Below the pieces are notes generated by a model. That model did not search any database, was not told the DNA's origin, and saw only the letters and a program-made list of their open reading frames with translations. Shown one piece after another: positions 23,244-26,309 of a stretch of 64,000 bases of DNA. The position numbers and the translations under genes were made by a program. Within the stretch, counting starts at the first letter, position 1. Each line of letters begins with the position of its first letter. The stretch is from Candidatus Cloacimonadota bacterium (GTDB lineage: Bacteria > Muiribacteriota > UBA6191), in assembly GCA_023954715.1 (NCBI GenBank), contig JAGSHD010000001.1, positions 300,468 to 364,467 on the forward strand. Reading direction: 5' to 3'.

Positions 23244-26200
23244 CTAAAACCTTAATACACTCCCAGAGTCAGTAGAGTCATCATTGTGATCCTCATCTTC
23301 ATGGTCATGATCTTCATCATGGCTATGCAGAGCTTCACGCTCTCCAGCAGCGAGACCATCTAAAATTTCAGCATTGGTGGCAGTAGAGCCACTTCCTGAA
23401 TAACCCATTCCTGCCTTTAGTCCCTGAACACTGGCATCTTTTCTTGTTAGATCAAATCCAAATCCTATTAACTGAGGATCATCAAACAATTGAAAAGCAT
23501 TATACTTTACGACTTGATTTGAAAAATCCTGACTTACATCAGCTTTACCTATCAATATATCTCTAGCCTTCATTCCTGATACCTTTTTCTCATAGTAAGC
23601 AATAACTTCTGATAGAGAAATACCCAGGTTAGCTGCCATTTCTGCTTCCGTCATTTTAAAAGCGGATAGTGAATCCACAATTACCATTAAGTTTGCTTTT
23701 AGCTCATTTGCAGTGTCCTCATCAGGGTTAGCTTCAATAATATCAACCATCTTTTGTAAGACAGACAAAGTACTAGCAGTTCCAATTGTTTCTACATCTG
23801 GGTTTACCTCTTGAATTGCTTGATGCACTATGTCAAAACCACCCGTATTTCGATAAGAAAACTCAAGCAACATGGATGCAAAGATATTTTCAATTTTAAA
23901 GTAGTCATCGGACTTTAAGGTATCACTATCATACTCAATAAAATCATCACAACCTAAACTACCAGTTTTACCATTATAAGATGGGTTTTGAGGGGTAGAG
24001 CTACTATCTTCTTTTCTAAATCCGCAGGCAGCCATAATATACTGTTGCCCACCAAAAGCCTCTGGAAAGAAAAATGCTTCATAAAAATCCGCTATCCCTT
24101 CTGTATAAGCTATAGAAGTATCTAATATCTCTGTACCATAATGCTGACCATCCGGACCATAAATATCTTGACCTGTATCGATAGTTTGTAAGTTGTCTTC
24201 AGAGTGAGTTAGTTCGTGTATCAAGGTAGATAGAATCCCATTAACAAAATCCTCTGGTTTATAAAAACCTCTCTGATTTTCAAAATAAGCTTGACCTAAA
24301 ACCAACTCATTTTCATTAGGATCATATACAGCATGTATACCAGCACCGTCATTTATAGTTCGGTCATCGGCTAAAACAATTTTTGGTGGAGTATTCGCTC
24401 CAGCCAATGTAAAGACTTTTTGTATCACCTCTGTAAACTTTGAGTTACTTTTAATTCCTTCATATAACAACTTTAAGTTTGGATTACTAATGGCTGCTGA
24501 GTTTAAAAACTCCTCTTCACTAATATCCTTACCTATAATACTACTTGTAGGAGTAGATGTAGAATAATCTCGAAAGTCATACTCAGATATAGATGCACCT
24601 AAAGGGAGGTCTGCTGAGCCGGTATCACCAGTTGAACCCGTATCTCCAGTTGAACCAGTATCTCCCGTTGAACCAGTATCTCCCGTTGAACCAGTATCTC
24701 CTGTTGAACCAGTATCTCCTGTTGAACCTGTATCTCCTGTTGAACCAGTATCTCCTGTTGAGCCAGTATCTCCTGTTGAGCCTGTATCTCCAGTTGAGCC
24801 TGTACTTGTTGAAAATGCTTTTCCGTAAATAAAGCCGAGTACTGAATATCTTGTGCTACCTAAAACACCATCAGAACCAAACTCTCTTCTTACCTCTTTT
24901 GTTTGTGGATAGTAGATATATCTAACATCGCAGCTTTGTGCCAAAGGCGTCCAGTTAGACTCATTTACTGAAAGTAGATATGTACCATCATTTTGTAATG
25001 TTGAGGATACAACTACTCCCATATGGCCATAACTTAATGTACTAGACTGATCTAAAATTAATATTGATGAATCATCAGGTGTTGAACCACTTCCAAAGCC
25101 GAGGTCCCATTTATCAAAAGCTAAAAAAGCTCCGCCATCGGCCCCAAGGCCAGGCATCTTTCCATAATCTCCACCAAATTGTTGTCTTACATAAAATACA
25201 CATTGACCAGTTGTTGAAGTACCTGTTAATCCAGCTACACAAGTAAATGTATTGTTATCATCGGTATTAACAGAAGTACCATCACCCGTACCTACAGAGG
25301 TGCCGTCGCTGCCTGTATCCACAGACGTACCATCTCCAGAGTCAACTGTCGTGCCTCCATCATTAGTGTCAACAGAGCCACCGTCACCCGAATCAATTGT
25401 GATGCCATCATCATTATTATTAGAGCCACTATCTCCTGATCCAGATGTAGATCCAGAGTCATTGGATCCTGTACCCGATGAATTACCAGTGGATGAAGAA
25501 CCACCTGAATTTGATCCAGTGCTCGAAGAACCTGAGTTAGTGACAGACCCTGAGTCTGTACGTCCCCCACCTGAATTAATAGAACCAAAATTACCTACAC
25601 TTTGTGAAGACTCTCCTGATGAACTTCCGCCCAATCCTCTAGCCGATCCAAAATTGCTAGAAATAACGATTGTTGGCCTAACTTCTTCTGGTTTTTCAGG
25701 TAAATCCGTTGATGAACTACTTCCTGTTGAAGTTCCACCTACGACACCAACACCAGAATTCACACTACTTGTACTAGTAGAGCCTCCTGTATTTGAGCTT
25801 GTTCCTGTTGATGATGAACCTGTTGTACTTGAATTATTCGTACCCGTCGAAGACCCTGTAGTAGTACTTGGTGTAGTGCTTGTACCGGCTCCTGTATTTG
25901 ATGGGGTAACATTTGCACCATTTACTCCCCCTACATTGGATGGAGCAATAGAAGGAGTTGGAGTCGTTGTGCTTTCTTGTTGTTTTGTTATAAAGCCTGT
26001 CGGTGATGCTGGTACACCTAGATCTGACTCTACTTCTTTTTCTGTTTTAAAAGGATTTACCTTAACATTTAACGCTTGTAAATCAGCACTAAGCTCAGTG
26101 GGTATCCCTCGATATTTTGTACTTAGATAAAATCGTATGGCATTTGCCCACTTACCATCTAATAAAGCAGCCAACTCTGGGTTACTACTTCTTGTATCAT

Positions 26201-26309
26201 ATAGAGTTTGTAATCCATTTTTACCTGAATACACAACATCGCCCGCACTTAAGTGCTGAACAAAAAATACTCCACAAAAAAGTAATGGTCTAAAATAATT
26301 TTTAAACAT
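23244..26309 (-). CDS. Large secreted multidomain protein of about 1021 aa. It has a signal peptide and an N-terminal domain. These are followed by a ~250-aa S/T/G/N low-complexity linker, D/G-rich SVDT repeats, a CHAP (Cys/His amidohydrolase/peptidase) domain, a (GSTGDT)n tandem repeat, a ~430-aa C-terminal HExxH zincin-like domain, and a His/Asp/Glu-rich tail.
   Basis: The signal peptide [23 protein letters not shown] follows a start at the ATG at 26307-26309. The CHAP signature is TGQCVFYV...YGHMGVVV (about 25020-25210). The HELTH motif lies at about 24205-24220. The C-terminus reads [17 protein letters not shown]. Confidence 0.8.
24622..24801 (-). repeat. Tandem 18-bp repeat (plus-strand GTATCTCCNGTTGAACCN) x10. 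It is in frame and encodes (GSTGDT)n inside the 1021-aa secreted protein.
   Basis: Ten near-identical head-to-tail 18-mers are read directly from the sequence. The differences between copies are confined to a few positions (mainly the 9th and 15th/18th), with a degenerate 11th copy. Confidence 0.9.

Follow-up and report, generated by a model that had tools for sequence, protein, structure and literature searches.

The occurrence of two putative hydrolase domains on a single chain, separated by long stretches of low-complexity sequence, raises the question of what kind of enzyme such a gene encodes and where this enzyme acts. The gene considered here occupies positions 23244..26309 of the minus strand in a 64,000-nucleotide stretch of DNA from a Candidatus Cloacimonadota bacterium (GenBank assembly GCA_023954715.1, contig JAGSHD010000001.1, positions 300,468 to 364,467 of the forward strand), hereafter referred to as the window, and its product is a protein of 1021 amino acids (aa). 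The explanation favored here, and held with moderate confidence, is that of a Sec-exported, modular and tethered cell-envelope peptidase, built on a core of a new gluzincin and an N-terminal domain (N-domain), to which a CHAP domain has been added in this branch. According to this explanation, folded modules would be chained on long disordered tethers rich in serine, glycine and threonine. The core conserved in the lineage would comprise the N-domain of ~88 aa and a C-terminal zinc metallopeptidase (C-domain) of ~420 aa, in which zinc would be held by H698 and H702 of an HELTH motif, most likely together with E737 on the next helix, and E699 would serve as the catalytic base. The CHAP cysteine peptidase/amidase (Cys370, His429, Glu450) would have been acquired by this branch between the N-domain and the C-domain. 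What the data show are the limits of the domains, the conservation of their catalytic residues, the fold assigned by modelling, how rare the family is and which genes surround it; export, the binding of zinc, action on peptidoglycan and tethering by the linkers are inferred. Because CHAP domains are best known from peptidoglycan hydrolases, the field of action that it suggests is one of peptidoglycan stem peptides, cross-links or wall-embedded proteins.

Both enzymatic principles, the CHAP domain and the HExxH peptidase, are of known kinds. The new elements are a sequence-orphan family of predicted gluzincins with a wider superfamily of secreted proteins around it, the architecture of N-domain, linker, optional CHAP domain and gluzincin, and the partnership with a class-B radical S-adenosylmethionine (SAM) gene.

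The C-terminal Domain as a Predicted Gluzincin

The C-domain (aa 566-985; 23355..24614, on the minus strand like all other features of the protein) is an unclassified domain with a predicted thermolysin-type gluzincin fold. Searches against Pfam, NCBIfam, PHROG and the PDB sequences return no significant match, and comparison with the PDB, either by single sequence or by profile, gives nothing meaningful. The sole peptidase signal in Pfam is that of Aspzincin_M35 (PF14521), at 13-14.5 bits against a cut-off of 30, and the best PHROG score is a 17.5-bit match of unknown function. For Peptidase_M4 and Peptidase_M4_C (MEROPS M4), no Pfam or NCBIfam match appears even at an E-value of 10, and the literature on DUF6055 turned up nothing relevant. 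The initial annotation had been unable to name a family for this domain, and it was right in this respect.

The predicted structure is revealing of the likely affinity of the domain. Its AlphaFold model has a predicted local distance difference test score (pLDDT) of 85.3 and a predicted template modelling score (pTM) of 0.88, and all 21 of the top 21 matches in a fold comparison with this model are gluzincins. The HELTH motif (residues 698-702; 24204..24218) lies on one helix of the model (120-138 in domain numbering) and the invariant E737 (24099..24101) on the following helix (166-182), and it is because of this placement that the arrangement is read as that of a gluzincin. The zincin-like domain that the initial annotation had proposed around HExxH is thus supported, with conserved catalytic residues, as a zincin-type catalytic domain that by its modelled fold would be a thermolysin-like gluzincin. 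Two results call for caution: an hhalign comparison with thermolysin covers 18 columns of the HExxH helix only at 1.9% probability, and a Foldseek search of the PDB with the C-domain model finds nothing significant.

Conservation within the family is concentrated on the putative active site. Among the 12 close members, H698, E699, G718, D720, E727, E737, G763, E767, G780, L815, E816, R820, D879, R916, N937 and D943 are invariant, and H702, S703, Y717, P719, A734, G738, C762 and C787 are nearly so; the second histidine of HExxH, H702, is kept in 11 of the 12. A further 23 distant relatives, which are secreted proteins of 310-600 aa, share the core HExxH[ST]xD ... YGPDGxHYxxE ... AFxEGWAxF, and across the alignment of both groups the HExxH motif, YGPD, E727 and E737-G are invariant or nearly so. 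The family may therefore be recognized by the signature HExxH-x17-D-x6-E-x9-EG. Pfam provides no peptidase coverage of the distant relatives, one of which contains LysM and two of which contain DUF4124. Conserved cysteine pairs in the C-domain (Cys762/Cys787) and in the CHAP domain fit an extracytoplasmic protein.

The relationship to thermolysin-like gluzincins (M4 thermolysin/LasB and the catalytic domains of M1, M36, M30 and M61) is one of partial likeness. All have HExxH on one helix, and in thermolysin the motif is literally HELTH, as it is here. Gluzincins have a conserved glutamate in an 'EG(aromatic)A' context on the next helix, exemplified by the M1 motif NEGFA, and the conserved E737 has such a context and such a position in the model. 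However, the second histidine and the glutamate are 34 residues apart in the C-domain rather than ~18-20, the excess being the conserved YGPDGxHYxxE loop. The C-domain also has a large helical C-terminal subdomain that includes a winged-helix-like part, it lacks an FTP or PepSY propeptide, in place of which there is an unrelated N-domain hundreds of disordered residues away, and it has no membership at the sequence level, given the lack of Pfam or NCBIfam matches and an hhalign alignment restricted to the HExxH helix. On the basis of the model, the C-domain is read as a new sequence family with a thermolysin-like fold, a 34-residue His-to-Glu spacing and a helical C-terminal subdomain.

Aspzincins (M35, PF14521) also have HExxH followed by an invariant aspartate in a loop rich in glycine and tyrosine, which corresponds to YGPD here and to GTxDxxYG in M35. 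The loop of the C-domain is nevertheless YGPDGQHYG, and its aspartate is found 18 residues past the second histidine as opposed to ~9 in aspzincins. Membership in M35 was rejected, since both the score (13-14.5 against 30) and the GTxDxxYG motif fail. The aspartate concerned, D720 (YGPD720; 24150..24152), is still a candidate for an aspzincin-like alternative ligand.

Gene Limits and Protein Family

Translation of the window gives an open reading frame (ORF) of 1021 codons and a stop codon at the coordinates already reported in the initial annotation. If translation began instead at a TTG at 26342, the protein would be 11 residues longer (1032-aa variant). The ATG at 26309 is preferred because the ortholog in NORP72, the genome that matches the window most closely (NVVD01000006.1), begins at the equivalent methionine (MLKKYFKALLF...). 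In a published comparison (bioRxiv 10.1101/2021.10.08.463351), NORP72 is a basal and divergent lineage that has a 4.6-Mb genome with genes for flagella and aerobic respiration and might not belong to the phylum. Segment limits within the protein were checked by translating each coordinate range and by composition. An exact-sequence look-up in a protein collection found no match for the 1021-aa protein, its 1032-aa variant or the NORP72 ortholog.

The C-domain family is rare. A word-indexed search of 5.8 billion proteins with the single C-domain sequence found 3 relatives, and when a 4-sequence profile was run exhaustively with HMMER against 1.84 billion cluster representatives, 12 proteins passed E<1e-10 and 35 passed E<1e-3. 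Its conserved core consists of a signal peptide, the N-domain, a long low-complexity linker and the C-domain. As the initial annotation had it, the N-terminus of the window's protein (aa 1-22; 26244..26309) reads as signal-peptide-like, with a basic n-region, a hydrophobic core and LSA followed by GD. Equivalent hydrophobic N-termini are found in the NORP72 ortholog, in P0003 and P0006, and in the L008 and L021 members, and these are consistent with export. The N-domain (aa 23-110; 25980..26243), which is of unknown fold and has no Pfam or PHROG match, is conserved in relatives according to phmmer, being found at the N-terminus of P0003, P0006, P0012 and the proteins of L007, L008, L012 and L021, always accompanied by the C-domain.

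In contrast to this core, the CHAP domain is optional. It is located between linker and C-domain in the window's protein, the NORP72 ortholog (972 aa; L004 8459..11377), P0006 (967 aa), P0005 and L012, and is lacking in P0003 (723 aa), P0012 (936 aa) and the L008-type members (~1000 aa). The earlier description of two hydrolytic domains on one scaffold thus holds for the window's protein, in which both are present, but what the family conserves is the N-domain together with the gluzincin. Relative to NORP72, the N-domain is 70%, the CHAP domain 49% and the C-domain 66% identical; the flanking proteins are 81-93% identical, so that this protein clearly evolves faster than they do.

The protein ends in an acidic, His-rich tail (aa 986-1021; 23247..23354) with a His/Asp-rich stretch (aa 995-1011; 23277..23327) and the terminus ...SGSVLRF. 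The acidic/His-rich tail is kept only in close orthologs. A comparison of the termini of P0001-P0010 gives an extreme C-terminus of the form G-x-[IV]-[ILH]-[RHN]-x-[FY] or similar; the individual ends include SGSVLRF (window), SGNILRF, GEIIRNY, VHNGY and VHDGY, and the last residue is aromatic in most. No NCBIfam or Pfam match to a sorting domain, whether of the type IX secretion system or of CTERM type, is found on the full protein. The member P0012 carries an extra N-terminal Cys-rich/repeat region with a Tcp10_C-like repeat match, and a radical SAM gene is still upstream of its own gene.

CHAP Domain

The CHAP domain (aa 353-500; 24810..25253) is not reported in Pfam and NCBIfam scans of the whole protein, which return collagen-type matches only. 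When aa 353-500 are scanned alone, however, PF05257 is matched at 27.7 bits (cut-off 26; E 3.8e-6), which passes the gathering threshold, and phmmer against the PDB sequences retrieves two solved CHAP structures, 2lrj at E 0.0018 and 2k3a at E 0.017. In the alignment to these two structures TGQC370VFYV falls on AGQCTWYV and YGH429MGVV on FGHVAYV/YGHVAYV, and E450 in VNESNW is aligned to the EMN segment of 2lrj. C357, Q369-C370, H429, [E/D]450-S-N-W and C460 do not vary among four members whose CHAP domains share 37-49% identity. The triad of Cys370 (25200..25202), His429 (25023..25025) and Glu450 (24960..24962) is intact, and the pair Cys357/Cys460 would fit a disulfide in an exported protein. 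The CHAP assignment of the initial annotation was therefore correct, with cysteine and histidine in register with solved domains, if by a thin score margin.

With other CHAP peptidoglycan hydrolases (PF05257; 2lrj and 2k3a, the latter a 'CHAP domain protein') this domain shares the Cys-His-acid order GQC...YGH...(E/D)SN, a size of ~140 aa and, as predicted, the extracytoplasmic location of most of the CHAP family. It differs from them in the weakness of the sequence match (27.7 bits; E 0.002-0.02 to solved domains), in the extra conserved cysteine pair, in being optional within its own protein family, and in its position: it is placed mid-chain in 1021 aa between low-complexity linkers and not terminally beside a wall-binding domain.

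Low-Complexity Spacers

Two long spacers separate the domains, in agreement with the flexible spacers envisaged in the initial annotation. The first is a linker (aa 111-352; 25254..25979) composed to 80% of S/T/G/N/D and containing SVDT/GDGT repeats; its equivalents in relatives range from 100 to 490 aa and differ in sequence. Within it is an island of ~38 aa (aa 213-250; 25560..25673) whose pattern is conserved in the family: [IV]S..FG...R.LGG.SS...G.IN..G.R is found in P0003, P0006, L007, L008 and L012. This island could be a site of processing, binding or modification.

The second spacer (aa 504-565; 24615..24800), (GSTGDT)x10, has glycine at every third position for 21 triplets and threonine at every Y position. 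It passes the Pfam Collagen threshold (PF01391; 33.4 bits against 27.2), and at the DNA level it is an 18-bp tandem repeat of 10.4 copies with 92% match according to Tandem Repeats Finder (TRF), the copy number being approximate as it derives from a metagenome assembly. Matches to the NCBIfam models of the collagen-like adhesins Scl and Lcl remain sub-threshold, at ~36 bits against cut-offs of 325-500. The spacer at the same position in NORP72 is a non-periodic S/G/N/D sequence, and in more distant members the linkers are irregular runs of S/T/G. Because the Gly-X-Y periodicity is not kept even in NORP72, the closest full-length ortholog, it is doubtful that the spacer forms a true collagen helix. 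The collagen-like label previously given to the spacer is accordingly justified for the pattern and the Pfam score, but not for the orthologs. Bacterial collagen-like proteins (Scl1/Scl2, Lcl and the BclA-type GxT proteins) likewise have ~20 uninterrupted Gly-X-Y triplets, threonine at Y and tandem-repeat DNA; in contrast to them, the window's protein has no recognizable trimerization or anchoring domain, no proline in the repeat, no conservation of periodicity in orthologs, and scores far under the family cut-offs. Most simply, the (GSTGDT)x10 repeat and the other low-complexity stretches are variable-length flexible spacers that arise from tandem DNA repeats, and such spacers may act as tethers.

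These regions also affect gene calling. A 292-aa ORF on the opposite strand (25252..26130, plus strand) is a shadow of the low-complexity region. On the NORP72-type scaffold, as annotated in ENA, such a shadow ORF (L001 9120..9602, minus strand) is called as a gene, and the real gene is truncated to 624 aa (P0002) by a run of N inside TVDTGDGG repeats.

Association with a Radical SAM Gene

The pairing of this gene with its upstream neighbor is real, and is regarded as the most novel aspect of the locus. The neighbor encodes a B12-binding radical SAM protein of 492 aa (MCO4780933.1; 26486..27964, minus strand; Pfam Radical_SAM and B12-binding), the constancy of which had escaped the initial annotation. 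Wherever a locus recovered with the C-domain includes upstream sequence (the window, NORP72 L001/L004, L003, L005 and L006), a radical SAM gene is directly upstream on the same strand. The proteins of NORP72, L003, L005 and L006 are 82, 69, 59 and 54% identical to that of the window, respectively; the other neighbors differ. These orthologs lie at L003 2759..4225, L004 6802..8283, L005 6262..7617 and L006 3345..4805, and others are found in L007-L012 and L021. When the search is reversed and metagenomes are scanned with a radical SAM profile, all six orthologous loci recovered (L007; L008-L011, which are one lineage; and L012) have a family member directly downstream, and the same is true of the further ortholog in L021. 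Overall, the radical SAM ortholog (54-82% identical) immediately precedes a family member in nine of ten distinct lineages. To our knowledge, this pairing has been described by no one. The two products are probably functionally linked because, although the peptidase gene has its own promoter-like element and terminator, its place throughout the clade is immediately after the orthologous class-B radical SAM gene. If this is right, the pairing might lead to a protein modification not seen before, or to a new connection between radical chemistry and the cell envelope.

The radical SAM protein itself misses every NCBIfam cut-off. Its best partial likeness is to a C-methyltransferase of ribosomally synthesized and post-translationally modified peptides (RiPPs; TIGR03975), at 95 bits against a cut-off of 282. 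There is further sub-threshold likeness to PhpK-type and lipid-type class-B enzymes and to TIGR04014, which NCBIfam names methyl-coenzyme M reductase glutamine C-methyltransferase. The nearest solved structure is 9ccb (E 8.5e-12), which is labelled QCMT, the name corresponding to the TIGR04014 family, in a 2026 review (PMC12931638). A hidden RiPP precursor between the two genes was considered and rejected: the spacer in L003 is only 68 bp, and the spacer in the window holds a conserved promoter-like block.

A paralogous tier of radical SAM proteins, 42-49% identical and with one copy in NORP72 itself, has been found in three contexts (L016 5761..8377, L018-L020 5831..8368 and the P0057 locus). 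In each of them a LysM + Peptidase_M23 gene and a 100-115-aa ORF without annotation come before the paralog, and the downstream genes differ; the 100-115-aa ORF has no similarity to the N-domain. Both radical SAM paralogs of the clade thus adjoin genes of wall-peptidase type; this is a hint that the entire radical SAM subfamily may be linked to peptidases that act on the wall.

Alternative Explanations

The favored explanation of an exported envelope peptidase is supported by the housekeeping character of the neighborhood, which is syntenic with NORP72, and by the LysM domain in one distant relative. Several observations weigh against it. The CHAP domain is absent from about half of the family, so that the core job need not concern peptidoglycan, and where present in the window's protein it scores just above threshold, leaving a thin statistical margin. 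E737 is the candidate third zinc ligand in the model, but the invariant D720 and the near-invariant H723 are alternatives. In P0012 (L006 5001..7811) HEAVY replaces HExxH and the second zinc-binding histidine has become tyrosine, so this member may be inactive. Finally, in L022 (GCA_019454875.1) the genes that follow the radical SAM ortholog (64% identical) encode FGase, an amidohydrolase and alanine racemase, and a stretch of 9.7 kb contains no member of the family.

The same architecture might be seen as that of an antibacterial or predatory weapon, as the initial annotation had suggested, in which the CHAP domain would cut the peptidoglycan of other cells, the gluzincin would degrade envelope proteins, and tethers and length variation would reflect an arms race. 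The presence of two putative hydrolase domains on one exported chain, the faster evolution than that of neighboring genes and an architecture that varies by lineage through gain or loss of CHAP and linkers of 100-490 aa are all compatible with this. However, the gene has no conserved immunity-like partner beside it, the 171-aa membrane ORF at 22586..23101 being missing from the corresponding locus of NORP72; its surroundings contain nothing mobile or phage-derived and no gene for a secretion system or for toxin delivery, and the N-domain, the CHAP domain and the C-domain are without a significant PHROG match. The gene is single-copy in the window, its fixed position behind a conserved radical SAM gene and its synteny with rplM, rpsI, tlyA and a Na/Ala symporter gene resemble a housekeeping module, and predation is not among the traits reported in the paper on the NORP72 genome (bioRxiv 10.1101/2021.10.08.463351). 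The weapon thus lacks specific support and is an unlikely explanation. Less likely again, and indeed improbable, is a structural surface fiber or adhesin in which a Gly-X-Y triple helix would trimerize the protein, the S/T-rich stretches would be glycosylated stalks and the 'enzyme' domains would be binding modules. The 21 uninterrupted triplets above the Pfam Collagen cut-off with threonine at every Y, the weak Scl and Lcl matches and the mucin-like low complexity of about one third of the protein give this idea its appeal, but the periodicity is absent from the closest full-length ortholog and from more distant members, the repeat has neither proline nor charge pairs, the NCBIfam scores (~36 bits) are far from the cut-offs of 325-500, and the strict conservation of catalytic residues in both enzymatic domains argues for catalysis.

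A third explanation, which is compatible with an envelope peptidase, proposes a maturase and its substrate: the radical SAM enzyme would act on the peptidase while this is still cytoplasmic, prior to its export by Sec, and might for instance C-methylate the N-domain, the linker island or a site close to the catalytic center. A precedent by analogy only is provided by AtsB/AtsA-type pairs, in which an exported sulfatase, AtsA, is matured by AtsB, a radical SAM enzyme encoded adjacent to it. There, too, a radical SAM gene is directly upstream of the gene for a signal-peptide-bearing hydrolase and is kept there across genomes. The present enzyme is nevertheless of class B (B12-binding) and not a SPASM-domain anaerobic sulfatase-maturating enzyme (anSME), its partner is a peptidase without a formylglycine motif and not a sulfatase, and the modification is hypothetical. 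Such a proposal is invited by the adjacency in nine of ten lineages, where all other neighbors differ, and by the class-B enzymes that the radical SAM protein most resembles, which modify peptides or proteins (TIGR03975, 95 bits; TIGR04014; nearest structure 9ccb, QCMT according to PMC12931638). In addition, short elements are conserved at the very C-terminus and within linkers that drift freely around them, and these are potential recognition or modification sites; the HEAVY variant P0012, too, retains the radical SAM neighbor. However, none of these likenesses comes close to an NCBIfam cut-off, the promoter-like element that lies between the two genes is conserved, the L022 ortholog is without a partner nearby, and no modified residue can be inferred from sequence. 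Moreover, the two genes could be adjacent because their products serve one pathway, for instance in the chemistry of envelope lipids or of the wall, and not because one product modifies the other. The maturase-substrate pair is therefore considered possible, though doubtful. Only tentatively may it be extended to a dedicated maturase that installs its modification before secretion, in which case the two would make up a new system of radical SAM maturase and secreted metallopeptidase, with the C-domain founding a new gluzincin family.

If the favored explanation of a tethered envelope peptidase is true, a sequence-orphan family with its own HExxH-x17-D-x6-E-x9-EG signature and uncharacterized secreted relatives would join the thermolysin-fold zinc peptidases. 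It would also mean an unusual build for a wall-acting enzyme, with catalytic modules on hundreds of residues of repeat-generated disordered tether, and a conserved pairing of class-B radical SAM enzymes with exported wall peptidases in a poorly known basal lineage labelled 'Cloacimonadota'. Should only the ordinary reading hold, the protein would simply be another modular protein of autolysin type, to which a member of a new peptidase family is joined.

Gene Neighborhood and Transcription Signals

The gene order at the locus is Na/Ala symporter, this gene, B12-binding radical SAM, tlyA, rpsI and rplM, and is syntenic with that of NORP72; the neighboring loci of P0013 and P0009 are uninformative. 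A phage endolysin or prophage lysis module was rejected as an identity for the gene, since PHROG gives no support and the neighbors are ribosomal proteins, TlyA, the symporter and the radical SAM protein.

The initial annotation had described the gene as flanked by strong terminators, which is accurate for one side. Downstream, 3' of the stop codon, an intrinsic-terminator-like hairpin and T-run (23183..23215, minus strand) has a 12-pair stem, CCCCTAAATCAAT...ATTGATTTAGGGG, followed by TTTTT. Upstream, nothing terminator-like is found in the 176-bp AT-rich spacer that separates this gene from the radical SAM gene. A consensus scan of this spacer instead identifies a promoter-like TTGACA-16-TATCCT (26407..26434, minus strand). 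It falls within a block, ATTGACAAA...TTCTTATC(C/A)TTAATAATGATGG, that is shared between the window (26395..26440, minus strand) and L004 (~8350..8400) and has been kept while the rest of the spacer diverged. By its sequence, this block is likely to be a promoter or operator, and the gene probably has its own promoter.

An Rfam scan of the window gave no matches. Between the symporter gene and this gene is the 171-aa ORF at 22586..23101 (plus strand), whose hydrophobic stretches resemble those of a multi-pass membrane protein. It has no Pfam or NCBIfam match and is missing from the locus in NORP72, in which the two genes lie just 64 bp apart; a Logan assembly is the only recorded source of its exact sequence. 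Past the symporter stop codon, at 22455..22478, is a perfect palindrome with a 10-bp stem, AACCCAGACT...AGTCTGGGTT, which has a terminator-like score on both strands.

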